From: Elusimicrobiota bacterium
Lineage (GTDB): Bacteria > Elusimicrobiota > Elusimicrobia > FEN-1173
DNA: 33,185 nucleotides
Reading direction: 5' to 3'
NCBI GenBank assembly: GCA_035332125.1
Contig: DAOQNO010000001.1
Coordinates: forward strand, 1-33,185
Part shown: in pieces, positions 1,571 through 30,690 of the stretch
Position numbering within the stretch: position 1 is the first letter of the stretch
Layout: the number at the start of each line of letters is the position of its first letter
Translations under genes and position numbers: made by a program
The notes under the pieces: model-generated
What the model was told of the DNA's origin: nothing
The model's input: the letters and a program-made list of their open reading frames with translations, nothing else
The model's database searches: none

Positions 1571-2965
1571 ATGAAGCGACTCCTCCCCATCCTGGCTCTC
1601 CTTTGTCTCTGGGTTATTGCCCGCGCGGGCAAAAACCCCCTGCCGGAACCCGATCAGCAATCCCGGGTTTACCGATTCAAGCCCGTTCAATTCAAAACCA
1701 TTGATTCCTATTCCGATGAAAAACCCCTCTTAAACCAAATCGCCCGGGACACCTGGGGCTACTTCCGCGATTTGGTGGACAAACAGACCGGCATGCCCCT
1801 GGACAACGTGCTGATCGGCTCCACTTACACAAAAGTCAACAGCTACACCTCCACCACCAACATGGGGCTTTACCTCATGTGCCTGGTTTCCGCCGAAGAC
1901 TTCGGATACATAACGCGGACGGAAAGCCTCGCCCGGGCGCGGCGCCTTCTGTCGACGCTTCGGGAGGTGGACCATTGGGAAGGGCAATTTTTTAACTATT
2001 ACGAAACCATCACCACGGACGCCTCGTCGCGTTTCGTGTCCTCGGTGGACAACGGCTGGCTGGCCGCGGGGCTCATCGTGGCCCGACAAGCCTACCCCGA
2101 ATTGGAATCGGAAATCGATCCGATGCTTCGGCAAATGGATTTTTCGAAATTGTTCGATCCCGAGGCGGGTCAGCTCTATTTGGGATACGACGCCGACAAA
2201 AAGAAGCCCTCGGACTCCCATTACGGCTTGCTGTGCACGGAACCCCGTCTGGCCTCCTACATCGGCATCGCCAAGGGCGATTTGCCCCACGACCATTGGT
2301 ATCGGCTTTTTCGAACCCTCCCCCTGGATTGGGATTGGCAGAATCAAAAACCCAAGGGGAAAATCGTTGAAAAAGAAGGCGTTCCCGTTTTTTACGGCTA
2401 TTACGAGCGCAACAAAGTCCGTTGGGTGCCGTCCTGGGGCGGGAGCCTTTTTGAATTTTTGATGCCGACCCTCGTGTTGGACGAAGGCCGTCTATCGCCC
2501 AAGGGGTTGGGCGCCAACAACAAGATCGCCCTGGACGCCCAGATCCGCTATGCCCTCGAAGAACGGCGTTACCCGGTGTGGGGCCTTTCCCCCTGCGCCA
2601 CGCCCGACGATCCCCTGGGCTACAAGGAATACGGGGTTCCCTACTTGGGGGCCAAGGGCTACCGGGACGACGGCGTGGTCACCCCCCACGTGAGTTTTTT
2701 GGCCTTGTCCGTCGATGCGCCCCGGGCCATCGAAAACATTCGCCGTCTGGCGCGTTTCCGAAATTTCTATGGGGAATACGGATTTTACGACAGCATCAAC
2801 GTCAAGACGGGTCGAATTTCCCCGCGTTATTTGGCCTTGGACCAGGCCATGACGTTGGTGGCCCTGAACAATTACCTGAACAACGGCGCGATTCAAAAGC
2901 GGTTTTGGAGCCATTCCCTGATCCAGGCCCAATCCCGGCTACTCCGCGACGAGGTTTTTTTTTAA
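1571..2965 (+). CDS. Exported glucoamylase-like (alpha/alpha)6 glycoside hydrolase of DUF3131/GH144 type; candidate endo-beta-1,2-glucanase
   Basis: A purine-rich SD (GAGAAGGG, 1560-1567) precedes the ATG. The signal peptide is MKRLLPILALLCLWVIARA|GK. Motifs recalled from the 'glycoamylase'/DUF3131 family are present: NMGLYLMCLVSAEDFGYI, DNGWLAAGLIVA, WGGSLFEFLMPTLVL, YGFYDSINVKTG, LALDQAMTLVALNNYL. The family call is from memory, not from a search. Confidence 0.75.
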   Translation: MKRLLPILALLCLWVIARAGKNPLPEPDQQSRVYRFKPVQFKTIDSYSDEKPLLNQIARDTWGYFRDLVDKQTGMPLDNVLIGSTYTKVNSYTSTTNMGLYLMCLVSAEDFGYITRTESLARARRLLSTLREVDHWEGQFFNYYETITTDASSRFVSSVDNGWLAAGLIVARQAYPELESEIDPMLRQMDFSKLFDPEAGQLYLGYDADKKKPSDSHYGLLCTEPRLASYIGIAKGDLPHDHWYRLFRTLPLDWDWQNQKPKGKIVEKEGVPVFYGYYERNKVRWVPSWGGSLFEFLMPTLVLDEGRLSPKGLGANNKIALDAQIRYALEERRYPVWGLSPCATPDDPLGYKEYGVPYLGAKGYRDDGVVTPHVSFLALSVDAPRAIENIRRLARFRNFYGEYGFYDSINVKTGRISPRYLALDQAMTLVALNNYLNNGAIQKRFWSHSLIQAQSRLLRDEVFF

Positions 2966-2984: not shown

Positions 2985-3755
2985 GTGATCCCCCGGACCG
3001 TTGGGGTTTTGACGCACCCCGACCCTGATCTTTCCGCGCCCTATTTCGTTGAAATTCTCGCCGGCCTTCGCCGGACTTTGGGAGCCATTCGCGTCAATCC
3101 GCCCCCGGGAACGCCGCTGACGGGCGTGGTCCGGGTGGCGCCGGAAGGAAAGGCGTCCCTGCCGGCGGGGTGGCGGCGACTCCCGACGGTGGTGGTCAGT
3201 GGCCGATCCGCGACGGCCCCTTCCTGGGACGTCGACAACGTGGTCTCGGCGCGGCGGCTGGTGGGTCTTCTGATTCGGCGCGGCCATCGGCGAATTGCTT
3301 TGATCAACGGAAAGTTGGACACGGCCAACGGGCGGGACCGCCGCCGGGGTTTTCGGCAGGCCCTGCGAAAAGCGGGGATTCGTCCGATCCCCGCCCTGGA
3401 AGTCGAAGGGCGCTTTGATCGAGAGCGCGGCCGTAAGGCCATGAAGTGGTTGTTGAATTTGAAACGGCCGCCAACCGCGGTGTTCGCGGCCAACGATGCC
3501 ATGGCCCTGGGGGCCCTCGAAGAATTACGATATCGGCGATGCCGGGGCGTGGCGGTGGCGGGGTTCGACGATGTCCCGGAGGCTCGGAGGGCGGGCTTAA
3601 CCACCGTTCGACCGCCTCTTCGTCGGCTGGCGGTCCAGGCGGGCCGGGCTCTTCGCCGGTGGGTTCAAAGGGACGAGCGCCCGGCGGCAAGGGCGATTGT
3701 GGTCCCGGCCCGGATCGTGATTCGAACGTCATCGATGAAACGTGTTGTTATTTAG
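2985..3755 (+). CDS. LacI/PBP1-family sugar-binding core domain protein lacking the N-terminal HTH
   Basis: It has the classic LacI core pattern: RTVGVLTHPDPDLSAPYFVEILAGL, then RRGHRRIALINGKLDTANGRDRRRGFRQAL, then AVFAANDAMALGALEEL...VAVAGFDDVPEARRAGLTTVRPP. The earliest possible start is GTG 2985, because an in-frame TAA lies at 2970-2972 and the upstream gene ends at 2965. That leaves no room for the ~60-aa HTH and hinge. Confidence 0.75.
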   Translation: MIPRTVGVLTHPDPDLSAPYFVEILAGLRRTLGAIRVNPPPGTPLTGVVRVAPEGKASLPAGWRRLPTVVVSGRSATAPSWDVDNVVSARRLVGLLIRRGHRRIALINGKLDTANGRDRRRGFRQALRKAGIRPIPALEVEGRFDRERGRKAMKWLLNLKRPPTAVFAANDAMALGALEELRYRRCRGVAVAGFDDVPEARRAGLTTVRPPLRRLAVQAGRALRRWVQRDERPAARAIVVPARIVIRTSSMKRVVI

Positions 3756-3783
3756 AAGCAAAGAACGAAAGTCAGGAGACGAT

Positions 3784-5733
3784 GTGAACGTCACGAAACG
3801 ACGTTGGATGCTGGTCGCCGCTCTGGCCGCCGCCGCCCCCTTGGGGGCCGCGGTGATTGATCCTTTTGAGTCCCTTTCGGGTTGGTCGACTTTCGCCGAT
3901 ACCGGGTCCACCGTGACTTTAAGCGCCGTCACGGGCGTCGCGGGCAACGCCCTTCAAATGAATTACGACATGACGGCCGGATCTTTTGTCGGCATCACCC
4001 GCACCTACAGTTCCCGGAATTACGCGGCCACGGGGGCCAACGCCCTCCGGTTCGCCTACCGGGCCTCGGGCCCCACCAACACGGCCCAAATCGAATTCGT
4101 CGACGCGGACAGCACCACCACGGTCTTGGCCGACGGCCTGGTTTACAAGTTTCCCGTGACCCCGGACAACACCTGGCGGGAACTCACCGTTCCCCTGACG
4201 GATTTCATTACCTTCGCCAACGGCAACTCTTCCTTCGATTTGTCCCAAACCGCGAAATTCAGCTTTGGCGTCACCAAAGACAACGGCTCGGCCGGGACCG
4301 GCACCGTTTATTTCGACGCGTTCCACTTGATCCGGGCGACCCAGCCCGTTTCCTTGATCGACGGCAGTGAAAATTCCATTCCCGGTTGCGTGGCCAATTC
4401 GGTTCTCAACACCTGCGTCAACGACCGCATCGGACCCCAGTCCATCATTTATTTCCAGAGCGCGGGGTCGGGATACTCCGCGGTCGTTTCGACGGTCACG
4501 ATGAAAGGGGCCAAAACCCGTGAACTCAAGTGCACCTTGGGCGGCGGGCAATTCTGCGGCGTGGCCGAGGAGCTGGGCGGAATGTCCCTCCGCGGCAACG
4601 AAAGCATTCGGTTTTACGCGGGTTCGAATTTCGGCGGTTCCTCCGTTAAAATGGAAGTGAAAGACGTGGCCAGCGTCACTTTCAGCACCACGGTCACGGG
4701 GCTCCCGGCGCCCCCGGCCAACTTTTCGACGTACACTTTTTCCGCGGCCGCCATCCAAGCGGCCCAGCCCGCCATCGACCTGAGCGCTCTCAAGGAAATT
4801 GTTTTTGTCTTTGACACCGCCGGCGCCCACGACCTTTATTTCGACGACCTGTCCATCGTTCCGCCCGCGGCGACTCTGGCCGACCTGTCCGTCGTGGAGG
4901 ATTTTGGGTCCGATCTGGCCGAAGGGAACTTCGTCACGGCGGCACCCACCCAGGCCACCGTGGGACTGTCCTACGTGGACGATCCGACGTCCTTGGGCGC
5001 CGGGGCCGACAACCGGGTGGCCAAGCTGGATTACAGCTTTGCCGTGGACCCTTCAACGCCCTTCGCCGTGGCGGAGCGGACGTTGGGCATCAACCTCCTG
5101 GCCGAGCCCGGTCTTCGCTTCCGGTTCAAAGGGACCGGGGGAAACGAAAATTTAGAGGTCAAAATCACCGACGGCGACGGAACGATCTACGTAAAGAAAT
5201 TGACCGAGGTGACGGACACCGGGGGGGTCTGGAAAACAGCCACCCTCAAAAGCGACCAGTTTTCCTTCAGCACGCTCGGCAGCGACGCGCGGTTGGATTT
5301 AAAGAACATTACGAAGGTGGACTTCGCGGTGTCTCTGGGCAAAGCGGCCGCGGGGACCTTGGCCTTGGACAATCTGGAATCCCTGCCGGCCACCGATTTT
5401 CAAAAAACGTCCATCGGACGCGTGTTGACCCAGGTGACCACCCCCAACAATCCCTTTTCCCCCAACGGGGACGGCATTAAGGACTCCTTCCGTTTAACCT
5501 ACACCCTCAGCCAAACGGCCCACGTGGTTCTCCGGTTTTACGCCCTGCACGGGGCTTTGATCAAAACCTTCGACGTCGGCGATCAAACGGCGGGGGACCA
5601 CGCCATCGATTGGGACGGCACCGCGGACGACGGGCGGCGGGTCGGCAACGGCCTGTGCCTGTTCTCCTTGGAGGCCGACGGAGCTATCGACGGGAAAGAC
5701 ACGTTTAAAGAAATCGCCGGGGTGCTCCGATGA
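3784..5733 (+). CDS. Secreted protein with 3 CBM-like beta-sandwich modules and a C-terminal FlgD-Ig/T9SS-like domain
   Basis: GTG 3784 lies 5 nt after AGGAG (3774-3778) and yields the signal peptide MNVTKRRWMLVAALAAAAPLGA|AV. Three ~160-aa modules each end in a '...G(T)-x-Y-F-D-x-(F/L)' strand (VYFDAFHL, LYFDDLSI, LALDNLE). The C-terminus (~5440-5730) has NPFSPNGDGIKDSF...VVLRFYALHGALIKTF...HAIDWDGTADDGRRVGNGLCLF. The ORF's maximal start, 3742, would overlap the upstream gene. Confidence 0.8.
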   Translation: MNVTKRRWMLVAALAAAAPLGAAVIDPFESLSGWSTFADTGSTVTLSAVTGVAGNALQMNYDMTAGSFVGITRTYSSRNYAATGANALRFAYRASGPTNTAQIEFVDADSTTTVLADGLVYKFPVTPDNTWRELTVPLTDFITFANGNSSFDLSQTAKFSFGVTKDNGSAGTGTVYFDAFHLIRATQPVSLIDGSENSIPGCVANSVLNTCVNDRIGPQSIIYFQSAGSGYSAVVSTVTMKGAKTRELKCTLGGGQFCGVAEELGGMSLRGNESIRFYAGSNFGGSSVKMEVKDVASVTFSTTVTGLPAPPANFSTYTFSAAAIQAAQPAIDLSALKEIVFVFDTAGAHDLYFDDLSIVPPAATLADLSVVEDFGSDLAEGNFVTAAPTQATVGLSYVDDPTSLGAGADNRVAKLDYSFAVDPSTPFAVAERTLGINLLAEPGLRFRFKGTGGNENLEVKITDGDGTIYVKKLTEVTDTGGVWKTATLKSDQFSFSTLGSDARLDLKNITKVDFAVSLGKAAAGTLALDNLESLPATDFQKTSIGRVLTQVTTPNNPFSPNGDGIKDSFRLTYTLSQTAHVVLRFYALHGALIKTFDVGDQTAGDHAIDWDGTADDGRRVGNGLCLFSLEADGAIDGKDTFKEIAGVLR

Positions 5734-6593
5734 ACCGCCGCTGGTCCTTTGCTTTCCTTTTGTTGGCCGCTCCCGCCCTGCGGGCGGCGTTCGAGCCCCT
5801 GGGGTACGGCGCCGCGGCCAAGGGCATGGGGGGCGCCTACGTGGCCTCCGCCGAAGACGGCACCGCCGCCTATTGGAACCCGGCCGGCCTGGCCCTGGTT
5901 CGTCAGCCGCAATTGACCGCTTCCATGGAAGACTTGTACGGATTGGGCCTCCTTCGCTACGCGGCCGTGGGTTATACCCATCCCCGGCTCGGCGGGGGAA
6001 CGCTGTCGGCCCATTTGCTCCATCTCGACACGACGGGCGAAGCCGATTTTTATAAATACGCCGAGAGCACTTACCTGGTGGCCTACGGCAAATCCCTCTG
6101 CCAGGACTGCCTGAGCGTGGGGGCGGGGCTCCGTTACTACGCCGCCCAGGGCGGCGGCGCCCGGGGGTCGGGCGTCGGCCTCGACCTGGGTCTTTTGTGG
6201 CGTCCCTTCGACGACCGCCTGCGCCTGTCGGCCGCTTGGCAGGACGCCAATCAGCCCTCCATTCGCTGGGACACGGGCGCCGAGGATCTCCAGCCCTACA
6301 CCGTCCGGACGGGCGCCTTGTTCCGTTTGACCACCACGACGGATTTGGCGGCGGAATGGGACAAGCGACGATTTGAGAAGGCCCAATGGCGGTTCGGCGG
6401 CGCCCAGCGATTGATGAAAAATCTGGTCACCTTCCGGGGCGGCCTCCACCGCGGGGGCGACCAGGAGCAATGGGGCTTTTCCGTGGGCGGCGGTTTCCAC
6501 TTCCGGACCTTTGATGTGGATTACGCCTGGGACAGCCAGGAAGCTCTCGGCAACACCCAAACCATGAGTCTCGGATTGAGGTTCGGCCAATGA
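5730..6593 (+). CDS. PorV/PorQ-like (UPF0164-like) outer-membrane beta-barrel protein
   Basis: The start overlaps the upstream stop as ATGA. The signal peptide is MNRRWSFAFLLLAAPALRA|AF. The N-terminal signature AAAKGMGGAYVASAEDGTAAYWNPAGLA matches the A-x-A-L-G-G-A...D(D/E)...NPA pattern of PorV/PorQ-type barrels. The rest shows alternating aromatic/Gly beta-strand periodicity and a C-terminal ...SLGLRFGQ. Confidence 0.7.
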   Translation: MNRRWSFAFLLLAAPALRAAFEPLGYGAAAKGMGGAYVASAEDGTAAYWNPAGLALVRQPQLTASMEDLYGLGLLRYAAVGYTHPRLGGGTLSAHLLHLDTTGEADFYKYAESTYLVAYGKSLCQDCLSVGAGLRYYAAQGGGARGSGVGLDLGLLWRPFDDRLRLSAAWQDANQPSIRWDTGAEDLQPYTVRTGALFRLTTTTDLAAEWDKRRFEKAQWRFGGAQRLMKNLVTFRGGLHRGGDQEQWGFSVGGGFHFRTFDVDYAWDSQEALGNTQTMSLGLRFGQ

Positions 6594-7876
6594 AAATCCT
6601 TCGTCCCGTTCTCGTCGGCGCGGTCCTGGTCGGAGCCCTCTCGATGGTTTCCACGGGCCTTCGCGCCGCGGGCCCCGTCCTCCTGCTCGACAATTTCGAT
6701 GAAGACAAGACCGAAAACGCCCTGGGCGGCGCCACCGGCGCCTGGATGGACCCCGAAGACAAAAGCCAGGGGTGCACCGCCTCGCGCGTCCAGCTGGACC
6801 GGCTGGGCTCCCTCGGGCGAAGCCTGCGACTTGATTTCGACATAGAAAGCCAACGGGAAAATATTCGGGTCCCCACGAATTTTTCCGTGGCCAGCCCGGC
6901 GGTCGCTTTGAACCAGGCCTTCAACGGTTATTACTCGGTGTTCCCGGCCCAGGACCTGCGCCCCTACAACTACTTGATTTTCTGGGCCAAGGGCGACGCC
7001 ACCGCCGGCTACACGCGTTCCTTTAAGATTGAAATCAAAGACGGTCTCAGCTCCGGCTACAAAGGATTTGTGATGGACGGATTGGGCACGGAATGGCGCC
7101 GGTTTGTCGTCCCCCTTCGGGATTTCGCCGACATCAAGGACTGGGGCGCGGTGAAGGAATTCGTGATCGTTTTCGCCGCCGACGCCGTGACGCGCAAAAA
7201 CGGCACTGTCTACATCGACGACGTGTATTTCGCCCAAAACCCCGACAACAATTTGACCCTCCCCGAACGGGAAATGACGGCCCGTCACGCCGAGAAACCG
7301 GTAACCCTGGACGGCAAGCCCTCCGAATGGCCCCGCCGGGATTTCATCGATTTGTCCCCTTCCGAATTCGTCGAATCCGGGGCCCGGGGGCTTCGGGACG
7401 CCGGGGCCCGCTTCGCCGTCCAGTGGGACGAGCAATGGCTTTATTTGACCGTTGATCTGGAAGACAACGAGATCCAAAACGGCGAAGAGGGCGAATCCCT
7501 GTGGAAAGGCGACGTGGTGGAGCTTTACGTCAACCCCACGGGTCCGGTTTTCACTTGGGGGGATCCGTCGGCGTTCCAGCTTGGTTTCTCCCCGGTGTCG
7601 GCTTCGGGCGTGCCGGGCCGGTGGGCGTGGTTTCAACGCCGGGCCCCCAAGGAAAACGAAGCCCGTTACGCCTGGGACAAAAAAAAGCACACAGCGGAAA
7701 TCGCCGTGGCCTGGTCGTTTTTGGGGGTCACCCCGGGCGTCAATCGGGACCTGGGTTTTTCCATCGCTTTTCACGACAAGGATTCCGCGGACGGAACGCC
7801 GGAAGCCAAGCTCCAGTGGAGTTTCCAGTCCCTGGGCGGTAAAAAAGCGCGACTTGGAAAGTTGGTGTTGAAATGA
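6590..7876 (+). CDS. Secreted carbohydrate-binding protein with an N-terminal CBM11/CIA30-like module and a C-terminal CBM9-like domain
   Basis: The start overlaps the upstream stop as ATGA, and a signal peptide ends ...STGLRA|AG. The N-terminal module reads LLLDNFDEDKTENALGGATGAW...YLIFWAKGD...FKIEIKD...WRRFVVPLRDFADI...VKEFVIVF...GTVYIDDVYF. The C-terminal part (~7262-7876) reads VTLDGKPSEWP...ARFAVQWDEQWLYLTVDLEDNEI...WKGDVVELYVNP...TAEIAVAWSFLG...GFSIAFHDKD, which fits a CBM9-like pattern. Confidence 0.75.
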   Translation: MKILRPVLVGAVLVGALSMVSTGLRAAGPVLLLDNFDEDKTENALGGATGAWMDPEDKSQGCTASRVQLDRLGSLGRSLRLDFDIESQRENIRVPTNFSVASPAVALNQAFNGYYSVFPAQDLRPYNYLIFWAKGDATAGYTRSFKIEIKDGLSSGYKGFVMDGLGTEWRRFVVPLRDFADIKDWGAVKEFVIVFAADAVTRKNGTVYIDDVYFAQNPDNNLTLPEREMTARHAEKPVTLDGKPSEWPRRDFIDLSPSEFVESGARGLRDAGARFAVQWDEQWLYLTVDLEDNEIQNGEEGESLWKGDVVELYVNPTGPVFTWGDPSAFQLGFSPVSASGVPGRWAWFQRRAPKENEARYAWDKKKHTAEIAVAWSFLGVTPGVNRDLGFSIAFHDKDSADGTPEAKLQWSFQSLGGKKARLGKLVLK

Positions 7877-10455
7877 AGCCCACTCGACGATGGAATTCCG
7901 CCCTGGCCGCCTTTCTCTGGTGGGGGGCCAATGTCCACGCGGACGCCGGTCAAACCCTCGCGGACTTTGACAACACCGCCCCGGAACTTTTCGCGTTCAA
8001 AGACGAGAAGGGAACCGTGCTGAACGCGAGCACCGCCTACGCCGACGGCGAGAAGGGCAAGCACCTGGGAATTCGCTACGGCATCGTTCCCGGCGGTTTC
8101 GGGGGCGCGGGCCTGGCGCTTAAAGGCTTCAACGCATCGGGATACCGTTATTTGGGTCTCGACATCCGGGGGGACGCGGGCGGGGAATCCTTCGACGTGG
8201 GTCTGCGGGACGCCAAAGGCCAGGAGCGGAAGCGGTCCATCGCCGCTTACACCGACGTGGCCAAAACTTGGCGGCGGGTGCTCATTCCTCTGGGGGATTT
8301 CGGCGGGGTGACGCTGTCCGCCCTGGACAATATCAGTTTTGGGTTTGCCGAGAAGAAAAAGGGGCGGATCTACATCGACAACATTGGTTTTGAAGGCGCC
8401 GCCGCGGGATCGGACGGGGCCCTGGTGAATAAAGTGGTCGTGGACGGTTTTGACCGCACCAACCCGACCCAGGCTTACCGGGTGTTCACCGGGGACCAGT
8501 CCTCCCTTTCCTTGACGTCGTCGCGGGTCCTCTTCGACGGCGACTATTCCATGGAGATGCAATACCAATTCTCGACCAACCGCCCCTGGGGCACCTGGGT
8601 TTCCGCCCAGCGGACGCCCGCCGAGCCGCTCAACTGGACCGGCATCGACGAGATCAAAATGTGGGTCAAGGGCGACGGTTCCGAAAACTATCTTCGTTTC
8701 CGTTTTACCGAATCCGACGGGGAAATTTGGGAATACGTGGACAAAACGGCCCTGGCGTCCACCCGGTGGACTCTGGTGGGCATGCCGATCAAGGCCTTCA
8801 AAATCGTCGGCCAACCGCCCAAGGGCACTCCGCCGGATTTGGCCGGGGTGAAGGCCTACGAAATCGCCTTGATGAGTCCGACCTCCTCCCAGACGTCGGG
8901 GGCTCAAGTCACCGCGGGACGCATCCAGGTCGACCTCCTTTACGTGACGGGAGAGCGTCTCTCTTCCGGCGCGATCGTGCCCGCCGCCGCGCCCCAACCG
9001 GGCGCCCCCGCCGGAGCGGCGATCCCGTCCGGCCGAATTCCCGGATTGGCCGCCGGCAACGTGGACTTCAGCCTTCAAGCCTACACCGAATATTTCTACA
9101 CGCCGGAAGAAAAAAGCGCGGTGAATCACCTGGCCAAACTCACCACGACCGGAAAATTGGGGAACTACAGCGCCCGGGTGGAGTTCGGGTCCACGTCCCA
9201 GGAATTTGGCCAAGCTTCGACCTTTGTCGGGTCTTCGGTGACGGCCACCACCAACCGCTTTCCCGGCTTGGAAATGCCCAGCTTCCAGGTCTTCATCACC
9301 AACCTTCACCCCGCGGTCTCCCTGGTGACCCTCGGAAACCTCTTCATCGATTATTCGCCGGATCTCTTCGCCCCGGTTTTCGGTTTTAAAGGCATCGAAG
9401 TGCAGGGCGACGTGGACCGCCTAAACTACGAAGGGTTCGTGATCAAACACTCCCTTAATTCGTTTACCGGCGGGGCCCGCGGGGTTTATTATCTGCCCAA
9501 TCTCAAGTTGTCGGCCTACGCGGTCTACTGGGAGCAGAACGGTCGGCAATCCAACGCCAGCACGGTGTCCGGCGGGTCCCTGCAACCGGCCGCCAACAGT
9601 GCCGTGTTGAAATTGGAGCGCCTGGCCCAGGACATGACGTACCACCTCCAGGCGGATGCCCGGACCTGGAACGACCGCCTTCGACTGGTCTCCCTTTACG
9701 GCTACAACACCTATCGCCAAAACGCCACCGCCGATTACAGCGATCCCTTCAACCCGGTGTTTTCCCAGTTCGTCGACCCGGCCTATCAAGCGGGGGGGCA
9801 CCTTTGGCGGAACCGGGTGGAACTCTACGGCGCCGGGGATTTCCTCGGCTGGCGGGGGTTGGACCTGGCGTACGGATACCGGGACATCGGCACGGGCTAC
9901 AAGCCCCATTTCCGGCAGGTGCCCGTATTCTACGACGACACGGATTCGGACCAATGGGGCCACAACGTCCGGGCCGTTCAGCGGCGCGGGGGGTGGACGC
10001 TCTCCGCCGAATACGACGCCATGCGTCGCCACTCCGACGCGGCCTATTTTCGGCACAAATTTCTCTGGGGCCTGGGTCACTACGGCTACCGGGGGATGGA
10101 CGTCTCCCTGACCCAGGATTACCGGCGGGAAACCTACAAGTTCACGAGCGACCGTTCCGCCTTTACCACCGACAAAAATGAAAAAGTGATCGGCACCGAA
10201 CTTTACGTCCGCGCCCAACTGTCGTCCCGGGTGGCCGGCTGGGTCAAGCCCCGGCAGGAGCGCATCTGGCACCCGGCGACGAACGGGACGTTCACTTCCG
10301 ACAGCCTTCAGGCCCGCTTGGAATATTACGTGGCCAACAACGCGAAGCTCTTCGCCGAACACAAGATCACGCGTTTCTCGGAGGCCGGCCTGGAGCCCCA
10401 AGGCACCCCCTTCGACGATAATTTTACCCGAATCAGTTTCGAAGTCGTGTTTTAG
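7873..10455 (+). CDS. Outer-membrane beta-barrel protein with two N-terminal CBM-like modules
   Basis: The start overlaps the upstream stop as ATGA. The signal peptide is ...AAFLWWGANVHA|DAG. Two modules are present (LADFDN...YLGLDIRGD...FDVGLRD...WRRVLIPLGDF...GRIYIDNIGF, and VVDGFDRTNP...IKMWVKGDG...LRFRFTESDG...RIQVDLLYV). A Pro/Ala linker (AAAPQPGAPAGAAIPSG) follows. From ~9070 there are ~460 aa of Tyr/Gly-rich amphipathic strands ending in a beta-signal with terminal Phe (FTRISFEVVF). Confidence 0.75.
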   Translation: MKPTRRWNSALAAFLWWGANVHADAGQTLADFDNTAPELFAFKDEKGTVLNASTAYADGEKGKHLGIRYGIVPGGFGGAGLALKGFNASGYRYLGLDIRGDAGGESFDVGLRDAKGQERKRSIAAYTDVAKTWRRVLIPLGDFGGVTLSALDNISFGFAEKKKGRIYIDNIGFEGAAAGSDGALVNKVVVDGFDRTNPTQAYRVFTGDQSSLSLTSSRVLFDGDYSMEMQYQFSTNRPWGTWVSAQRTPAEPLNWTGIDEIKMWVKGDGSENYLRFRFTESDGEIWEYVDKTALASTRWTLVGMPIKAFKIVGQPPKGTPPDLAGVKAYEIALMSPTSSQTSGAQVTAGRIQVDLLYVTGERLSSGAIVPAAAPQPGAPAGAAIPSGRIPGLAAGNVDFSLQAYTEYFYTPEEKSAVNHLAKLTTTGKLGNYSARVEFGSTSQEFGQASTFVGSSVTATTNRFPGLEMPSFQVFITNLHPAVSLVTLGNLFIDYSPDLFAPVFGFKGIEVQGDVDRLNYEGFVIKHSLNSFTGGARGVYYLPNLKLSAYAVYWEQNGRQSNASTVSGGSLQPAANSAVLKLERLAQDMTYHLQADARTWNDRLRLVSLYGYNTYRQNATADYSDPFNPVFSQFVDPAYQAGGHLWRNRVELYGAGDFLGWRGLDLAYGYRDIGTGYKPHFRQVPVFYDDTDSDQWGHNVRAVQRRGGWTLSAEYDAMRRHSDAAYFRHKFLWGLGHYGYRGMDVSLTQDYRRETYKFTSDRSAFTTDKNEKVIGTELYVRAQLSSRVAGWVKPRQERIWHPATNGTFTSDSLQARLEYYVANNAKLFAEHKITRFSEAGLEPQGTPFDDNFTRISFEVVF

Positions 10456-10462
10456 ACCCCGC

Positions 10463-12712
10463 ATGCGCCGCGTTTGGTGGCTCCTCCCCCTGCTGTTTTC
10501 GGTCCGGTCCGCCCGGGCCGAACGGCCGTTGGTGGTGTGGGCCATGGGCGAAGAGGGGAAAAAGATCGCCCTCATGGCCCGCCGGTTCGAGGCCGCCCAT
10601 CCCGGGGTCACCGTCGAAACCCAGGCCATTCCTTGGGAAGCCGCCCACGCCAAGCTGTTGACCGCCGTCGTGGGGGGCATTCCACCGGACGTGAGCCAGG
10701 TGGGCACGACGTGGATGGCCGAATTCGCGGCCATGGACGCGCTCGAACCCCTCGACGGCCGCGCCGCGTCATCGACCAACGCCCGTCCCGACGCTTTTTT
10801 CCCCGGATCGCTTCAAACCTGCCGCGTGGACGGCGCCCTCTACGGCGTTCCTTGGTACGTCGACACCCGCGTGCTCTTTTATCGAAAAGATTTGCTGGCG
10901 GCCGTCGGTTATCCGGACGGCCCGTCCACCTGGGAAGAGCTCACGGCCGCGGCCCGGAAATTGTCGACCCGGCGCACGGCCGACGGTCGACGGGCCTACG
11001 GCATCTCCCTCGGCGCCCGCAGCTGGACCGACCTTCTCATGGCGGTGTGGCAGAACGGCGGCGACCCCCTGCGTCCCACGTCGCCGGCTTTTTTTGGCGC
11101 CGTCCAGCATTACATCGGGTTCTTCCGCGACAATCTCACACCGACCAAGGAAGCGGCGGACGTGGATCTTTTCCACGCTTTCAAAACCGGCTACTTGCCC
11201 ATGTTCGTTTCGGGGCCCTGGATGTTGGAGCTGATCCGGAAAGAACTCCCCGAATTGGACGGTCGCTGGGGGGTGGCAATGCTTCCGGGGAAAAAATCCC
11301 GCACCTCCTTCGTGGGGGGATCCAACTTGGTTGTTTTCAAGGCGTCGAAACAAAAGGACCGGGCCTGGCAGTTCCTTGAATTCATGAGCGATCCGGCCAA
11401 CCAGGTCGAGTGGATGAAAAGCACGACCGATCTCCCGTCCGTGCAGGTGGCGTGGAAAGACCCCTATTTCAGCGACAAGCCCCTGGTGCAGGTGTTCGGC
11501 CGCCAACTGTTCGACACCGCGAGTCCGCCGACGGTGCCCGAATGGGAGCAGATCGCCAGCGCCATGGACGACACCATGGAGCGCGTGGTCCTCGATCCCG
11601 CCCAAACCGAGGACACCATCCGGGTGGCCCTGGCCGAATTGGAAACCCGCATTTTGAAACTCCGGTCGGCCCGAACCCGGGAACCGGGCAGTTGGCGGCG
11701 GTTCGGGCGATGGGCGGGCGTGGCGGCCCTTCTCCTCGCGGCGGCTCTCTGGTTAACGACGGTCGGACGCCTCCGTTCCCGGGCCGACGGCGCCCCGGGC
11801 GAAGCGCCCTTCCAGTTGCGGGAATTTTTCCAACGGGACATCGTCGGTCTGCTTTTCACCGTCCCCGCCCTGGTGCTCTTGGTGACGTTTCTTTTCCTGC
11901 CCATCGCGGTGTCCTTCCTCATGAGCTTGACCGACATTGATATTTTCAGCATCAACAAGTGGAAGGACGTTCAATTCATCGGGGTCAGCAATTACCTGCG
12001 CATCGTCCAGGACCCCGTGTTCTGGCGTTCCCTGTGGAACACCCTGTATTTCGCCGGGCTGGGCGTCCCGTTGACCATCGGCGTCTCGTTGTTGGCGGCC
12101 GTGGCCCTGAACCAGAAATTTGTCCGCGGCAAATCCCTTTTCCGCGTCGCTTTGTTCGCCCCGGTCGTGACCACCGTCGTGGCGGTGGCGGTCGTGTGGC
12201 GATGGCTCTACAACCCCGAATACGGCGCCTTCAATTGGTTTTTGCAGAATCTGGGCCTCAAAAAACTTTTCTGGCTCTCCGATTCCCGCACCTCCCTGCC
12301 GTCCTTGATCGTCATGGCCGTGTGGAAAAACTTCGGCTACAACATGGTCATCTTTTTGGCCGGCCTTCAAACCATTCCCGAAAGCCAATACGAGGCGGCC
12401 CGGATCGACGGGGCCAGCGCCTGGCAAAGTTTCCGCTACATCACCATCCCGGGGTTGGCGCCGACCCTGCTCTTCGTCCTCATCATGACGACCATCGGTT
12501 ATTTGCAGTTTTTTGCGGAACCCTACGTCATGACTCGGGGGGGGCCGCTGGATTCCACCATGTCCATCGTCCTCTACATGTACAACCACGGCTTTCGGTT
12601 TTTCAATTTGGGTTACGCCTCGGCCATCAGTTACGCCCTCTTCGGCCTGATCTTTATGTTTACCTTCGTGCAAATGCGTCTTAAGAAGAACGGATTCGAG
12701 GTGTTTGTTTGA
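10463..12712 (+). CDS. CUT1-family sugar ABC transporter with a solute-binding protein fused to a MalF/UgpA-type permease
   Basis: It has a signal peptide (MRRVWWLLPLLFSVRSARA) and a family-1 SBP pattern (LVVWAMGEEGKKIALMARRFEAAHPGVTVETQAIPWEAAHAKLLTAVVGGIPPDVSQVGTTWMAEFA). A junction TM (WAGVAALLLAAALWLTTV, ~11701-11760) leads into a 6-TM permease with an EAA loop (ESQYEAARIDGASAWQSFRYITIPGLAP, ~12378-12460). It is one uninterrupted ORF. Confidence 0.85.
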   Translation: MRRVWWLLPLLFSVRSARAERPLVVWAMGEEGKKIALMARRFEAAHPGVTVETQAIPWEAAHAKLLTAVVGGIPPDVSQVGTTWMAEFAAMDALEPLDGRAASSTNARPDAFFPGSLQTCRVDGALYGVPWYVDTRVLFYRKDLLAAVGYPDGPSTWEELTAAARKLSTRRTADGRRAYGISLGARSWTDLLMAVWQNGGDPLRPTSPAFFGAVQHYIGFFRDNLTPTKEAADVDLFHAFKTGYLPMFVSGPWMLELIRKELPELDGRWGVAMLPGKKSRTSFVGGSNLVVFKASKQKDRAWQFLEFMSDPANQVEWMKSTTDLPSVQVAWKDPYFSDKPLVQVFGRQLFDTASPPTVPEWEQIASAMDDTMERVVLDPAQTEDTIRVALAELETRILKLRSARTREPGSWRRFGRWAGVAALLLAAALWLTTVGRLRSRADGAPGEAPFQLREFFQRDIVGLLFTVPALVLLVTFLFLPIAVSFLMSLTDIDIFSINKWKDVQFIGVSNYLRIVQDPVFWRSLWNTLYFAGLGVPLTIGVSLLAAVALNQKFVRGKSLFRVALFAPVVTTVVAVAVVWRWLYNPEYGAFNWFLQNLGLKKLFWLSDSRTSLPSLIVMAVWKNFGYNMVIFLAGLQTIPESQYEAARIDGASAWQSFRYITIPGLAPTLLFVLIMTTIGYLQFFAEPYVMTRGGPLDSTMSIVLYMYNHGFRFFNLGYASAISYALFGLIFMFTFVQMRLKKNGFEVFV

Positions 12713-13554
12713 ACGCCCGGGGCAAACGTTGGATGTCCGACGCCGTTGCCGCGGGGGGCGTGCATTTCCTCCTGGCCATCGCCGCGGCGGCCACGCTGAT
12801 GCCGTTTTTTTGGATGATCTCCACGTCGTTCAAGAACGGCGGGGGGCTTTTTACCTATCCCCCCACCTGGATTCCCCGGGACCCGACCCTTCAATGGTAC
12901 GCCCAGTTGGTGCGGGAGGTGAATTTCCTGGTCCATTTCCGCAACAGCGTGTTCGTCTCCGTGGCCATCACGGTCCTGAGCTTGTTCGTCAATTCCATGG
13001 CCGGTTACGCTTTCGCCAAGCACCGTTTCCGCCATCGGGACAAAATATTTAGTTTCCTCCTGGCCACCATGATGGTTCCCGGCCAGTTGACCATGATCCC
13101 CGTTTTCCTGTTGTTGAAAAAGATGGGTTTCCTGAACAGTTTTCTTGGTTTGATCGTGCCGGTGTGCGCCAACGTCTTCGGTATTTTCCTGATCCGCCAG
13201 TTTATGATGTCGATCCCCAACGATCTCATCGAATCGGCCCGAATCGACGGTTGCTCGGAATTTCGGATTTATTGGAGCGTGGTGCTGCCCCTGTGCAAGC
13301 CGGTCCTGGCCACGCTGAGCATCTTCACCTTCATCGGGTCCTGGAACGATTTTCTCTGGCCCCTGATCGTCATGGTGCGGGAGGACGGCTACACCCTCCC
13401 GGTCGCCCTGGCCAATTTAAACGGCCAGCACCCGACGGATTTCGGTCTCCTCATGGCGGCCGCGACGGTTGTGGTCCTGCCCGTGCTCGTGGTCTTTTTG
13501 GCGGCCCAGAAGTACGTGATCCGCGGCATCGCCACCACGGGCCTCAAGGAATAA
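12709..13554 (+). CDS. CUT1-family sugar ABC transporter permease (MalG/UgpE-like)
   Basis: TTG 12709 overlaps the upstream TGA as TTGA; ATG 12733 is an alternative start. The EAA loop is NDLIESARIDGCSEFRIYWSVVLPLCKP, and the typical MalG-like motifs FFWMISTSFK and FLWPLIV are present. Confidence 0.85.
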   Translation: MNARGKRWMSDAVAAGGVHFLLAIAAAATLMPFFWMISTSFKNGGGLFTYPPTWIPRDPTLQWYAQLVREVNFLVHFRNSVFVSVAITVLSLFVNSMAGYAFAKHRFRHRDKIFSFLLATMMVPGQLTMIPVFLLLKKMGFLNSFLGLIVPVCANVFGIFLIRQFMMSIPNDLIESARIDGCSEFRIYWSVVLPLCKPVLATLSIFTFIGSWNDFLWPLIVMVREDGYTLPVALANLNGQHPTDFGLLMAAATVVVLPVLVVFLAAQKYVIRGIATTGLKE

Positions 13555-13596
13555 TTTTTCATGCATTCTCAGGAATCTTCTCAAAGGAGCGGAACG

Positions 13597-14679
13597 ATGA
13601 ACAACTTGCGAAAAGGAACGGCGTTGGCGCTGGGTCTGATGATGGCCTGGAGCCCTCTGCCGGTCCTGGCGAAAAGCAAAGGCGCGGCCCCGGCGGCGAA
13701 AAAAGCGGCGCCCGAGAAAAAAGCGGCGGCGGGCGGCGGTGTGATTCTGGACAACTTCGACCGCATCGATTGGGCCTCGGCCAAGGACGCCGGGTCGGAG
13801 CTCAAGCTCTCCCAAGCCCAGGGGAAAAACGGTTCGGCCCTAAAGATCAGCTACCTCATGGGCACCGGCAAATGGGTGGCCATCAATAAATCGTTCTCGA
13901 TTCCGAGCTTTCGGGGCAAGGCGATTTCCTTCTGGATGAAAGGCAAAGGGGCCGCCAACAACCTCGAAATCAAGCTGGTGGACGAAGACGACACGAACTA
14001 CGGCGTTAAACGTCCCTCCCTGACGACCGACGGCGACTGGGCCCAGGTGACCTTCACCGAAGCCGATTTCAGCTATTGGTGGGGCGGGGATCAATCCCTG
14101 GGCGCGGTGAAGGACCTTTACATCGCGGTGGCCGCGGCCGGCGACGGGGGCTCGGGCGAAGTGTTGATTTCCGACCTGCGCTTGGTGGCGGCCAACCCGG
14201 CCGGCGCCCTGGCGAAGGACGGTCTCGTGGCGGACGGGTCCTCCCTGGAATCCTGGACCCTCGCCAAGGGCGAAGGCGCCAACGCCACGCTCTTTTCGGG
14301 AGCGGGGTTGAAGGGGAAAGCCGTCGGGGTTCAATATTCGATCCCGGCCAACCAATGGGTGGCCATCCGTAAAACGATCAACGCCGACCTGTCGGCGGGG
14401 AACGCCGCCTTGGTCCTCCGCATTAAGGGCGAAGGCGATCCCAACAACGTCGAAGTCAAAGTGGTTGACCGCGACGAATCGACCTTTGGGAAGGTGTTTC
14501 CGGGCATGGGCGCCTCGAACGCCTGGCAGGAAGTCCGCATCCCCCTGTCGAACATGGAATACCTTTGGGGCGGGGACAATCGGCTGGACGCCACCCTGAT
14601 CCGCCATTTGGACATCGCGATCAGCGGTCCCGGCGGCGAAGGCAAAATCCTCATCAACGACATTCGCGTTCAGAAATAA
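13597..14679 (+). CDS. Secreted protein with an Ala/Lys-rich linker and 2 CBM-like beta-sandwich modules
   Basis: ATG 13597 lies 7 nt after AAGGAG (13584-13589); the ORF's maximal start is 13561. The signal peptide is MNNLRKGTALALGLMMAWSPLPVLA|KSK, followed by the linker KGAAPAAKKAAPEKKAAAGGG. Two modules follow (ILDNFD...ISFWMKGKG..LEIKLVDEDD...WAQVTFTEADF...VLISDLRL, and ...LVLRIKGEGDPNNVEVKVVDRDE...WQEVRIPLSNM...ILINDIRV). Confidence 0.8.
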   Translation: MNNLRKGTALALGLMMAWSPLPVLAKSKGAAPAAKKAAPEKKAAAGGGVILDNFDRIDWASAKDAGSELKLSQAQGKNGSALKISYLMGTGKWVAINKSFSIPSFRGKAISFWMKGKGAANNLEIKLVDEDDTNYGVKRPSLTTDGDWAQVTFTEADFSYWWGGDQSLGAVKDLYIAVAAAGDGGSGEVLISDLRLVAANPAGALAKDGLVADGSSLESWTLAKGEGANATLFSGAGLKGKAVGVQYSIPANQWVAIRKTINADLSAGNAALVLRIKGEGDPNNVEVKVVDRDESTFGKVFPGMGASNAWQEVRIPLSNMEYLWGGDNRLDATLIRHLDIAISGPGGEGKILINDIRVQK

Positions 14680-14770: not shown

Positions 14771-17700
14771 ATGGAGCGGTGCGGACAACGAAAGGGATTC
14801 ACCAACAAGGCGACGGCCGAAGGGCGGGACGCGCGGGGCGGAACGCGTTGGATCGCCGCGCTGGTGGTCCTGTGGGTCGCCGCCTCGGCGATGGCCGCCG
14901 ACGGCCTCGCCTCCGCGCGCTCCCGAGGGGTGTTCAACATCGGCCCTTCCCAGGGCACCGTCAACACGCTCCAGGATCCGGACCTCCAGAAACCGGTTTT
15001 AAAATTTGATTTCACCGCGCCGGCCGGCGCGTTGGTGGGCGTGTGGACCAAGGATTATCCCTCGACGGTGAACGCCGGGGCGGTCCAGCGCGTGGTCGTT
15101 TCGGTCAAAGGGCCGACGGTTCCGCCGCCCGCTTCCGTGGCCCTCGAGATAAAGGGCGTCCGGGAAGTTCAACGCCTCCCCCTCGTCCTGCGCGCCGGGT
15201 GGAATCGGACCGAATCGGCGATTGATTGGGGTCGCATCGGGGCTTTGAAAGAAATCGTTTTTGTCGTTTCGTCGGCCCCCGGCCAAAAGGCCGCCGGGAC
15301 CCTATTGTTTGATTTGGAATTTGCGGCCGGAGCGCCCGCGTCCGCCGCGGTCCTTCCCGCGGACGCCCAGGCCCTGGACGCGGCCCACGCCCCCGCCCGG
15401 GGGTTCTTCAACATCGGACCCGCCGACGGGAAAGCGACCGCCGTTCCGGGCCCCGACGGCCGGGGCGCGCTCCAATTCGATTACGCCATCCCGCCCAAAT
15501 CCATGGCCGGGGTGTGGACGAAAGGCTATCCGCCCGCCCTTTCCCCGGCCACGGCGAACGCGGTGGAGGCGACGGTGCGTTTTCCCGCGGCGGGCGCCGC
15601 GCGCCGTTTGTCGGCCACGGTGGAACTCAAAGGAACGAAAGCCGTCCAACGCATCCCCCTCGAGTTGACCGACGGTGTATCCAAATCCCTTCACGCCGTC
15701 GATTGGAAAACCATCGGAAAGCTCAAAGAGGCCGTCCTGGTCGTGTCGCCGGCCGGGGGGAAAAGCGAAACGGGAACCCTTCTCTTTAATTTGGCGTTCG
15801 TGAAGCGCGCCGTGTTGCCCAAAACGGGCGGCGCCCGCCGTTTGGCGGAGGTGGCGGAGCGGGGCGCATTCAACATCGGCAAAGCCCAGGGAACGATTTC
15901 CCGCGTTCGGGACGGGGAACTCCGCCGGGACGTCCTTCGGTTTGATTTCACGGCCGCGCCCAAGGCGGTCGTGGGGTTGTGGAGCAAGGGCTACGCGGCG
16001 GATTTGTCCGCGGCCGTGGCCAACGCGGTGTCCGTGGGGGTCAAAGGCGGGCGCGGGGCCCCCGTGGCCGCGGTGGGTTTGGAAATCAAGGGCGACAAAG
16101 AAACCCAACGCATTCCCCTTTCCGTGGGCGCCGAATGGACCCGAACCGATCGGGCGGTGGAGTGGGACGCGATCGGAAAGGTAAAGGAAGTCGTTTTCGT
16201 CGTCACGCCCCTGGACCCGGCCAAAAAAAGCGCGGGCCGTTTCTATTTCGATCTGGCGTTTGAAAAAACACCGGTGGCGCCCGCCGGCGCGCCGGGGTTG
16301 GGTCTCTTGAGCGCCACGGAAAAAGGCGTGTTCACCATCGGCGGCGCGGAAGGGCGCGTGGTCATCGAGTCCGAGGCCGCGGCCAAAAAAAATGTTTATA
16401 AATTCACCTACGCCGTGGCGAGCGGCAGTTTGGCGGGCGTTTGGACCAAGGGATACCCGGCCGACTTGACGGCCGCCACCGCCAACGCCATCAACGCGGC
16501 GGTTAAAACGACCACCCCGGAGCAACGGGAAACCTTGTCCGTCGCCCTTGAGTTGAAGGGCGACAAGGCCGTTCAGCGCGTTCCGTTGGAAACGGGCGAC
16601 GGGTGGGCCACCACCGAACACGCCATCGACTGGCCGACCATCGGAAATCTGAAGGAAGCCGTTTTTGCCGTCACCCCCGCCCCCGGCCGATCCAGCCGGG
16701 GCGACCTGTATTTCGACCTTTCTTTCCTCCAGGGAGGAACGCCGGATCTCGCCGGGGCCGGCGCCCCGGGCGCCTTCGGGTTGTTGAACGCCGGCAAGCG
16801 CGGGGTGTTCAACATGGGGGCCTCGGACGGCCGGATCCTCGTGGCTTTTGACGACACCGTCAAAAAGGACCTGATTCGATTTGAATTCACCGCCGCCAGC
16901 GGGTCCGCCGTGGGGGTGTGGAGCAGCGAGTATCCCCCGGCCTTGACGCCGGAAACGGCCAACGGCGTTCGCGTGGCGGTCCACGCCGCGGACGCGGCCC
17001 AGGCGGCCGCCGTGGCGGTGGCCGTTGAGATCAAGGGCCTCAAGGAAACCCAGACCGTGGAAGTTCCTCTCCACGAAGGGTGGACGACGGTGCGGGAAGG
17101 GGTGGATTGGAAAACCATCGGGGGGCTCAAAGAAGCGGTGTTCGTCGTCAAGCCGACCCCGGGCGGCGGATCCGTCAACGGGGCGCTGACGCTGGATCTG
17201 GAATTCATCCAAGGCGATTTTGTCCTGAAGAAAGGCCCCCGGGTCGGCGGTAAGATCGGCTTGGTGTTGCTGACGGGCTTCCTTCTTTTTCTCGCGACGG
17301 CTTTGGTCGGCCGATGGATCCGCGGTCGGTCGCCGTCGGTTCCGGCCCCGGACGCCATCCCCGTTCCGGGGATGGGTCGGGATCTCTTGATGGGATCCCT
17401 TTTGACGGCCGGCCTCGTCGGGACGGTGGCCACCTTCGTGGTGGGTTCCCTCCCGGGGTCCGAAGGGTCTTTCGGGTTTCTGTTGTTGGGCGCCCTGGGC
17501 GCCTTGGTGGGCGAAGGCGCCACCCGGATTCTGGCTCAACGCCCGGGCACCCCGGGCGAAGTCTTCCTGAATTTTGTCTACACCGGCTTGGTGGCCGCGA
17601 GCTCAAGCCTTCAGCCCCTGTGGTTGGCGCCCACCAACGGCGCCCACATATTCCTGAACAACCACCTGACGGCGGCGGTGTTGTTCGCGCTCTACCACGG

Positions 17701-27145: not shown

Positions 27146-27146
27146 T

Positions 27147-30587: not shown

Positions 30588-30674
30588 GGGCGAAATCGAA
30601 TCGGCCGGCGCGGAGGAAAGCCCCGGCCTCCCATTCGCGCGTCGGGGCCGCGTCTGGGAAAATCCCGACGAGAA

Positions 30675-30683: not shown

Positions 30684-30690
30684 ATCGATT

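Follow-up and report, generated by a model that had tools for sequence, protein, structure and literature searches.

In a 33,185-nucleotide (nt) stretch of DNA from an Elusimicrobiota bacterium (contig DAOQNO010000001.1 of assembly GCA_035332125.1; hereafter the window, at its full length), the open reading frame (ORF) at positions 7873..10455 of the forward (+) strand encodes a protein of 860 amino acids (aa) in which two carbohydrate-binding modules (CBMs) are joined by a flexible linker to a predicted outer-membrane (OM) beta-barrel. We consider it probable, with considerable room for doubt, that this protein is the OM component of a conserved Elusimicrobia operon for the uptake and breakdown of beta-1,2-glucan or beta-1,2-glucooligosaccharides. 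A first-pass annotation of the same DNA had suggested that the barrel is the OM gate of a glycan system and delivers chains to or from its lumen. Such a gate is still the best reading and the gene does sit in a glycan system, with import as the predicted direction; the export half of the suggestion is the part that we abandon.

The boundaries of the gene are exactly those annotated before, and all window features given below lie on the + strand. The protein begins with a predicted signal peptide (aa 1-23, 7873..7941), MKPTRRWNSALAAFLWWGANVHA followed by DAG, which as read from the sequence has the Sec pattern of a basic n-region, a hydrophobic core and a cleavage-type site (VHA/D, predicted cleavage VHA/DA); residues 5-18 form a helix in the AlphaFold2 model. 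Module 1, a CBM30-like beta-sandwich (aa 26-176, 7948..8400), is followed by module 2, a CBM11/CIA30-like beta-sandwich (aa 184-364, 8422..8964), and by a flexible Pro/Ala/Gly linker of 32 aa (aa 365-396, 8965..9060) with a predicted local distance difference test (pLDDT) score of ~30. In the second of our two models the disordered stretch at pLDDT ~30 spans aa 367-394, and the Pro/Ala stretch AAAPQPGAPAGAAIPSG occupies aa 371-387 within it. The remainder is the C-terminal beta-barrel domain (aa 397-860, 464 aa, 22 predicted strands; 9061..10455 including the stop codon). This layout agrees with the signal peptide, the two modules of ~160 aa (151 and 181 aa by our boundaries), the Pro/Ala linker and the ~460 aa of C-terminal strands, all beta, that had been read from the sequence. 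The strands had also been described as Tyr/Gly-rich, which holds to a slight degree only: the C-terminal domain has 6.5% Tyr, 6.7% Phe and 8.4% Gly, and aromatic residues make up 15% of it.

The protein was modelled twice with AlphaFold2. A first model, built from 11 sequences (mean pLDDT 59.9, with poor CBM modules), was superseded by a second, built from 27 sequences after a homology search had added 17 full-length relatives (mean pLDDT 78.9, predicted template-modelling score (pTM) 0.49). Residues 397-859 form 22 consecutive DSSP strands with hairpin connections only (pLDDT 70-95), and the strand set is the same in both models. The barrel had been called porin-sized, which does not hold for 22 predicted strands as compared with the 16-18 of porins. 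The connections after even-numbered strands are 2-4 aa long, apart from one of 10 aa, while those after odd-numbered strands range from 4 to 21 aa. Short periplasmic turns and longer outer loops are the usual pattern of OM barrels. Given 22 strands, this alternation would place both the start of strand 1 and the C-terminal Phe on the periplasmic side.

Conservation among 27 aligned family members is consistent with a barrel. The protein ends in the beta-signal strand FTRISFEVVF (10423..10452), with alternating hydrophobic residues, an invariant F860 and a nearly invariant E857; the terminal Phe, which had been noticed at the outset, is kept in distant members as well. Several strand ends bear conserved aromatic residues, and charged residues are invariant at D587, R646, R670, K677, R681, D688, D693, D715, R719, D743, R761, E776, R780, E841 and D849. 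The outer loops are short and are conserved as much as the strands. The most conserved of them, GTGYKPHFRQVPVFYDDTDSD between strands 13 and 14 (aa 673-693, 9889..9951), has a conservation of 0.73 and the pattern GTxYKPxYRQxPxxFDDTDSD, in which K677, P678, R681, D688 and D693 are invariant. This loop is a signature of the family, its motifs were used to retrieve all related loci, and it may fold into the lumen as a constriction or binding element. Residues 397-860 are predicted to form an OM beta-barrel with a C-terminal signal of the beta-barrel assembly machinery (BAM) type. Of the generic features of BAM substrates, a Sec-type signal peptide and the C-terminal beta-signal are recognisable in the sequence, and a closed barrel is predicted. 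A barrel that covalently bears two modules of CBM fold, as first proposed, is thus borne out at the level of prediction.

The barrel has no close relative among described families. In Pfam it has no match (E <=1 for the window protein and 27 members, E <=0.01 for 10 distant members), nothing in NCBIfam matches any part of the 860-aa protein, and a phmmer search of Protein Data Bank (PDB) sequences with the barrel returned nothing; nor did a PDB search with the family profile at E <=10 yield a solved structure for the barrel. The first-pass annotation had likewise recognised no named OM protein (OMP) family. In Foldseek searches against the PDB, the C-terminal domain resembles many OM barrels at probability 1.0, none of them closely (template-modelling score (TM) <=0.48). 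The top-scoring barrel is AlgE (E ~3e-9, TM 0.41-0.48, root-mean-square deviation (rmsd) 11-15, identity 9-11%), and others include MOMP (TM ~0.44), the usher pores PapC and FimD (TM 0.41-0.45), LamB (TM 0.38-0.39) and TonB-dependent transporters (TM 0.31-0.39). SprA, the first Foldseek match by E-value, was discarded as a generic beta-meander likeness (TM 0.07-0.14, rmsd ~38).

Both N-terminal modules are, by profile and by predicted fold, members of CBM families. Pfam places CBM30 at aa 93-147 (4e-8, 33.8 bits against a cut-off of 27), CBM_11 at aa 189-318 (4e-13, 50.2 bits against a cut-off of 27) and CIA30 at aa 210-328 (1e-6, above the curated cut-off), and the CBM profiles match 18-20 of the 27 family members. 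In the AlphaFold2 model both modules are beta-sandwiches at a pLDDT of mostly 80-90 (83-90 for module 1), and Foldseek pairs them with the CBM11 of C. thermocellum Lic26A-Cel5E (1v0a, 6r3m and 6r31; TM 0.73-0.75, rmsd 3.5) and with the CBM30 structure 1wzx (TM 0.68), so that Pfam, model and Foldseek agree on the claim of two CBM-like modules. The modules are 16-22% identical to solved CBM11 and CBM30 structures (16-17% for CBM11) and are candidate glycan binders. Relatives of module 1 occur elsewhere in the window, in the ORFs at 28010-29260, 6590-7876 and 3742-5733.

The fusion is not peculiar to the window gene. When 5.8 billion clusters were searched by word index with just the barrel part as query, no more than 10 proteins were retrieved, some of them named Elusimicrobia proteins from metagenome-assembled genomes (MAGs); with a profile the number was 20. 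HMMER, run exhaustively over 1.84 billion 50%-identity representatives, gave 386 matches, mostly to the CBM region of unrelated large proteins; roughly 65 of the 386 (50%-identity representatives, fragments included) cover barrel positions. Homologues that are 28-85% identical are present in 18 species-representative MAGs, 13 of which are labelled Elusimicrobia/Elusimicrobiota, 2 Spirochaetes/Spirochaetia and 3 unclassified, and an index of public assemblies lists the identical 860-aa protein in 58 blocks. The family is, as judged from these searches, small and almost confined to Elusimicrobia MAGs.

Among members with a complete N-terminus, those of ~700 aa have one CBM stretch, those of ~860 aa two and those of ~1150-1190 aa three to four. 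Module 2, the CBM11-like one, is kept in every N-terminally complete member, and the linker measures 20-36 aa in 20 full-length members. No barrel-only member was found among the family matches; the short matches appear to be fragments, since they begin inside the last CBM strand or end motif. By sequence, CBM fusion is thus an obligate feature of the family. One 475-aa protein (P0004) was considered as a barrel-only candidate and rejected, both CBM modules preceding it in another frame (locus L002, contig CAZFKL010000102.1). In that locus the reading frame changes between the CBM part and the barrel part at ~3250-3330, within the stretch that codes for the linker, and module 2 is locally disrupted as well; the contig may be misassembled here, or the gene may be a pseudogene.

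The gene lies within a tightly packed operon. From 3742 to 14679, genes are separated by 4-nt overlaps or 6-7-nt gaps; the start of the barrel gene overlaps the upstream stop by 4 nt and the next gene begins 7 nt past its own stop. Read from this spacing, the barrel gene is translationally coupled to its neighbours. The gene immediately downstream (10463..12712) encodes a 749-aa ATP-binding cassette (ABC) importer component in which a solute-binding domain (SBP_bac_1, 7e-47) is fused to a permease (BPD_transp_1, 9e-14), and it is followed by a second ABC permease whose position is conserved (12709..13554; Pfam BPD_transp_1, 2e-23). Directly upstream of the barrel, here and in most loci, is a secreted 428-aa protein with CBM30/11-like and CBM9-like parts (6590..7876; Pfam CBM9_1, 5e-9), which is related to module 1 and has no lipobox cysteine. 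The operon opens with a CBM11 protein with a C-terminal domain (CTD) like that of type IX secretion system (T9SS) substrates (3742..5733; Pfam CBM_11 5e-14, FlgD_ig 4e-11 and a weak TIGR04131 match), which is kept upstream of the barrel in related loci.

To assess synteny, the window proteins were compared by tblastn with 20 related loci. In the Elusimicrobia MAG loci L001-L004 and L006-L014 the barrel gene is followed by the fused binding-protein/permease gene and then by the permease gene, and in more than 12 MAG loci the fused importer gene comes immediately after the barrel. Genes for SGL-clan, CBM11-like, CBM9 and GH94 (glycoside hydrolase (GH) family 94) proteins are found nearby in related loci. 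The binding-protein/permease fusion itself is kept in all related Elusimicrobia loci (query coverage ~7-747).

The neighbours also indicate a class of substrate. The solute-binding domain is closest to Lin1841 (5ysb; 1.3e-83 over 366 residues), which is the ABC binding subunit of Listeria innocua for the beta-1,2-glucooligosaccharides Sop3-5 (PMC12369401). An SGL-clan (GH144/GH189-like) enzyme homologue with a signal peptide (1571..2965; Pfam Glycoamylase 8e-23, DUF3131) matches the PDB entries 8wy1 (3e-55), 8rf9 (the middle domain of the cyclic beta-1,2-glucan synthase Cgs), 8xuj and the GH144 structure 5gzh; 8WY1 is the GH189 transglycosylation domain of TiCGS, while 8XUJ and 5GZK are SGL-clan beta-1,2-glucanases (PMC12102758). 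Further downstream, a 2677-aa protein (14771..22804) ends in a GH94 module (two copies of the Pfam GH94 supersandwich and a catalytic domain), which among PDB entries most resembles the GH94 part of cyclic beta-1,2-glucan synthase (3e-110). In one related locus (L001) a GH35-like gene follows the permease, which fits the GH35 enzyme acting on beta-1,2 linkages that was reported in an SGL cluster (PMC12369401).

By sequence, then, the locus is a cluster of the SGL/SOGP type, with a Sopn-type binding protein and with SGL-clan and GH94-type enzymes, its specificity being predicted. Because it combines a binding-protein importer and Lin1841-like, SGL and GH94 matches with the absence of a synthase, we read it as a beta-1,2-glucan utilisation locus, and for the same reasons the barrel would serve uptake and not export. 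We considered whether the 2677-aa protein is a cyclic glucan synthase, in which case the locus would serve export, and rejected the idea: only its GH94 and supersandwich parts match Cgs, the glycosyltransferase (GT84) part of Cgs has no match in it, and the remaining 1900 residues match the supersandwich region only.

We propose the following route. The barrel would be a wide, TonB-independent channel with a charged lumen through which glucan chains or large oligosaccharides could cross the OM, and conserved loops that fold inward, chiefly that at aa 673-693, would constrict the channel or bind the substrate. As strand 1 begins on the side of the 2-4-residue turns, the CBMs would hang in the periplasm on their linker, where they may catch the incoming chain and prevent its back-diffusion. 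They would then hand it to the periplasmic SGL-clan enzyme and to the permease-tethered binding domain, which, being fixed to the inner-membrane permease, cannot diffuse to the OM. The products would be imported and processed by GH94-type enzymes. A periplasmic position of the N-terminus and CBMs is the default from loop parity in the model; of the earlier idea that the CBMs deliver glycan to the barrel, delivery from the periplasmic side can thus be retained, and delivery at the cell surface is not the default.

Precedent for such a guide exists in ScrY and DcaP, whose periplasmic N-terminal coiled coils were proposed to guide substrate to an inner-membrane component (PMC6173795), that of ScrY as an 'extended sugar slide' (PMC6173795, citing Dumas et al. 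2000); the precedent is one of function and not of homology.

Several points weigh against this proposal. Closure of the barrel, the size of its lumen and the position of the CBMs are deduced from DSSP strings, low-TM Foldseek matches and loop parity. Over the 27 aligned members, a 9-residue window can be placed on each strand so that nonpolar residues make up, on average, 68% of one face and 19% of the other, which is ~45% charged, a contrast that is supportive only, as the windows were picked to maximise it and soluble sandwiches alternate too. Having only ~100 residues in its loops and no plug domain, a 22-strand barrel would leak badly if its lumen were left empty, and the model does not show what might occupy it. 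The known ligands of CBM11 and CBM30 are beta-1,4 and mixed-linkage (beta-1,3-1,4) glucans, not beta-1,2-glucan, and CBMs are classically extracellular, which makes a periplasmic site unusual. Finally, in the distant loci L017-L020 (28-30% identity) no ABC importer adjoins the barrel, and its constant partners are CTD proteins, PorV-like OMPs and a CBM lipoprotein.

These distant loci have further features of their own. The barrel is flanked by an SGL-clan (PF10091) enzyme with a T9SS-like CTD and by CBM11 proteins that also bear such CTDs, and every CTD protein, the SGL-clan enzyme included, has a PorV-like OMP of its own behind it. In the place of the CBM9 protein, immediately upstream of the barrel, is a CBM11-like protein of ~210 aa with a lipobox (L017 5690-6319, …IISC; L018 1356-1991, …ICSC; L020 6966-7622, …FASC). 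On a bolder and distinctly speculative interpretation, Elusimicrobia and the few Spirochaete-labelled MAGs would possess an independent, TonB-free counterpart of the 'utilisome' of Bacteroidota, in which a wide 22-strand barrel uses its own CBMs as plug or periplasmic ratchet and partners with surface glucanases and glycan-binding proteins that are carried on T9SS-like CTDs and docked to PorV-like barrels, maybe importing whole beta-1,2-glucan chains or cyclic beta-1,2-glucans (17-25 glucoses). If true, this would be the first OM route for beta-1,2-glucan outside SusC-type systems, with the first CBMs specific for that glucan.

Alternatively, the uptake system could be the same and the CBMs displayed at the surface, the linker threading the lumen or the modules being translocated as in autotransporters, to give a surface glycan-binding protein that feeds its own pore. 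The order of parts (signal peptide, passenger, linker, barrel) is that generally known for type Va autotransporters, and the linker, at least 20 aa in 20 members, is long enough to span the barrel; CBM11 and CBM30 homologues are normally extracellular, and related CBM modules of the operon are carried by T9SS-like CTD proteins, which suggests a surface location for those proteins. However, the protein has no autotransporter match in Pfam, 22 predicted strands in place of 12 and a linker predicted to be disordered, not helical. No folded beta-sandwich of 150-180 aa is known to pass through a barrel unless a dedicated mechanism assists it, part of the channel would be obstructed if the linker were threaded, and the operon already has CTD-type candidates for surface binding. 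We regard surface display as possible and on the whole unlikely.

More doubtful still is a gated, glycan-sensing channel in which one CBM, most likely module 2, is a reversible plug inside the 22-strand barrel, comparable to TonB-dependent transporters or ushers. It would explain what keeps a 22-strand barrel with short loops shut and why no family member does without a CBM. The strand number, 22, is that of TonB-dependent transporters, whose lumen is generally known to hold a globular plug of ~150 residues, the loops (<=21 aa) could not seal a pore of this width, and ushers, which have a beta-sandwich plug, are among the Foldseek matches. The pTM of 0.49, reached despite domain pLDDT values of 80-90, is nevertheless what is expected without confident domain packing. 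Plug and barrel of TonB-dependent transporters are joined by a short connection, whereas the linker here is long and disordered; no Plug or TonB-box signal is present, and the number of modules varies from one to about four.

That the barrel is a secretion pore or docking platform for CTD proteins, as in a T9SS, and not a sugar channel, appears improbable. The idea draws on the widest phylogenetic range of the family, where L017-L020 keep CTD proteins and PorV-like OMPs and not the importer, and on SprA being first in Foldseek by E-value, a match whose TM and rmsd are those of a generic beta-meander. A secretion pore has no evident need of CBMs of its own, the barrel is unrelated to the PorV-like OMPs (hhalign <1%), and it directly precedes the importer in 12 loci.

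An export gate for glucan made by the cell, like AlgE, BcsC or PgaA, is very improbable: AlgE is the best Foldseek barrel and the GH94 module has its nearest match in cyclic beta-1,2-glucan synthase, yet the AlgE superposition is poor (TM and rmsd as given above) with no Alginate_exp match in Pfam, the 2677-aa protein lacks the glycosyltransferase part of Cgs, related loci have GH94 genes of ordinary phosphorylase size, the transporter is a binding-protein-dependent importer, and the locus carries a LacI-type regulator and degradative SGL-clan enzymes. We give hardly any credence to a structural tether, in which the CBM-like modules, lying in the periplasm, would anchor the OM by binding peptidoglycan or periplasmic glucans, as in fusions of S-layer homology (SLH) domains to porins (the same layout of N-terminal periplasmic domain, linker and barrel, the default periplasmic topology, and SlpA, 8agd and 8ae1, among the Foldseek matches), as the gene is strictly part of a catabolic operon that is substrate-specific and under a LacI-type regulator, the family is rare, unlike a housekeeping envelope protein, and the modules belong to glucan-binding CBM families.

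The window contains further genes of the locus. The ligand-binding part of the LacI-type regulator is encoded at 2985..3755 (Pfam Peripla_BP_3, 1.5e-27) and has homologues in L006 and L009. A PorV/PorQ-like small OMP of 287 aa (5730..6593; NCBIfam PorV_fam 1.5e-21, below the curated cut-off) follows the CBM11 protein, and a secreted CBM11-like protein that is conserved in related loci closes the packed series (13561..14679; Pfam CBM_11 5e-6, at the cut-off). The 2677-aa GH94 protein has a signal-peptide-like N-terminus followed by ~1600 residues without a Pfam or PDB match, a stretch that contains internal repeats (aa 46-425, 363-748 and 512-812 all match the same region of L011). An exported GH94 module of phosphorylase type would be unusual; in related loci the GH94 gene is of ordinary size.

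Two pairs of a CTD protein and a small OMP are present in the window, at 3742-6593 and 25442-28073. The second pair has a CHU_C domain match, and its OMP (27147-28073) has no Pfam match. We considered whether the large barrel is related to these small PorV-like OMPs and rejected it, hhalign giving <1%, whereas the small OMPs at 5730-6593 and 27147-28073 match each other at 100%. Such pairs also surround the barrel gene in L003, L005, L010, L011, L014 and L017-L020. They resemble the type-B CTD/PorP-like anchoring of Bacteroidota (PMC9143113), found here in Elusimicrobia, and hint at T9SS-like surface anchoring outside Bacteroidota. The ORFs at 1-1440, 23168-23971 and 24033-24854 have secretion-signal-like or hydrophobic N-termini and no Pfam match; in L010 the CTD/OMP pair is preceded by homologues of the second and third of these ORFs. 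At 30559-32489, an Mrp/NUBPL-type ParA ATPase (GBBH-like_N) and an Nfu/NifU-type scaffold ORF overlap in different frames (31308-31878); one of the starts is probably mis-set in the mechanical ORF list, and these genes are unrelated to the glycan locus.

The passage of large glycans across the OM is poorly known in diderms outside Bacteroidota and Proteobacteria, and this family is a testable candidate for it, combining a barrel to which no described or solved OMP is detectably related, an obligate CBM fusion and coupling to an importer with a membrane-tethered binding protein. It offers two candidate beta-1,2-glucan-binding modules and a candidate OM channel for a polymer that is important in symbiosis and pathogenesis. 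In the literature that we searched, which did not cover subscription papers, we found no description of a CBM-fused OM barrel family or of such a locus, and no OM uptake route for beta-1,2-glucan was found described there. CBMs in the periplasm or in a plug would be a new use of these modules; at the surface they would represent a new mode of display.

Among known systems, the barrel family is, by sequence and model, unclassified: it lacks the plug and profile match of TonB-dependent transporters, the strand number and profile match of sugar porins, and the profile match of autotransporters and of AlgE-type exporters. AlgE, like the barrel proposed here, is a monomeric polysaccharide-conducting barrel with a charged lumen and is the best-scoring Foldseek barrel, but it is an exporter with 18 strands (our model predicts 22) and without fused CBMs, and its Alginate_exp profile does not match. 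Type Va autotransporters and the Helicobacter Hop adhesins comprise a signal peptide, an N-terminal functional (sometimes lectin) domain, a linker, a barrel and a terminal Phe. The order of parts is therefore the same; however, theirs have 12 strands and a helical linker, the Pfam Autotransporter family (PF03797) is not matched here, and the present barrel is nearly twice as large and is encoded in a transport operon.

The sugar porins (LamB/ScrY, OprB, KdgM and CymA) differ in strand number (12-18 as compared with 22), and neither their family profiles nor their solved members match. The barrels of ScrY and DcaP are 16-18-stranded trimers. Both are OM sugar channels with a periplasmic N-terminal extension proposed as a substrate guide (PMC6173795), as we propose for the CBMs, but their extensions are coiled coils and not CBM folds. 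The modules themselves resemble the CBM11 of Lic26A-Cel5E and CBM30 in Pfam scores above the curated cut-offs and in fold (TM 0.68-0.75). They differ in identity (16-22%), in a locus context that points to beta-1,2-glucan in place of the known beta-1,4 and beta-1,3-1,4 ligands, and in being joined to a membrane barrel, while known modules are found on enzymes.

SusC/SusD-type loci of Bacteroidota comprise a 22-strand TonB-dependent transporter, a lipoprotein lid and surface glycan-binding proteins, and known Gram-negative beta-1,2-glucanase clusters are of this broad kind. As in the SusC/SusD loci of Bacteroidota, an OM barrel, glycan-binding proteins, degradative enzymes and a regulator are brought together here in one co-regulated locus, the predicted strand number of the model (22) is that of SusC, and in the distant loci the barrel gene comes immediately after a gene for a CBM lipoprotein, which recalls SusD-SusC. 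In contrast to SusC and other TonB-dependent transporters, the barrel has no Plug (PF07715), TonB box or TonB_dep_Rec match in Pfam or NCBIfam and no sequence similarity to them, with Foldseek TM values of 0.31-0.39. Moreover, the glycan-binding modules are fused to the barrel and not placed on a separate lipoprotein, an ABC importer serves the inner membrane, and the host phylum is Elusimicrobia. SGL gene clusters have been mentioned before (PMC12102758, PMC12369401). The lin1839-1841 genes of Listeria innocua and the SOGP/SGL clusters share with the present locus a Lin1841-like binding protein, GH94-type and SGL-clan enzymes and, in L001, a GH35-like gene. The Listeria system, being Gram-positive, has no OM step, whereas here the binding protein is fused to the permease and an OM module, made up of the CBM-barrel, the CTD proteins and the PorV-like OMPs, has been added.

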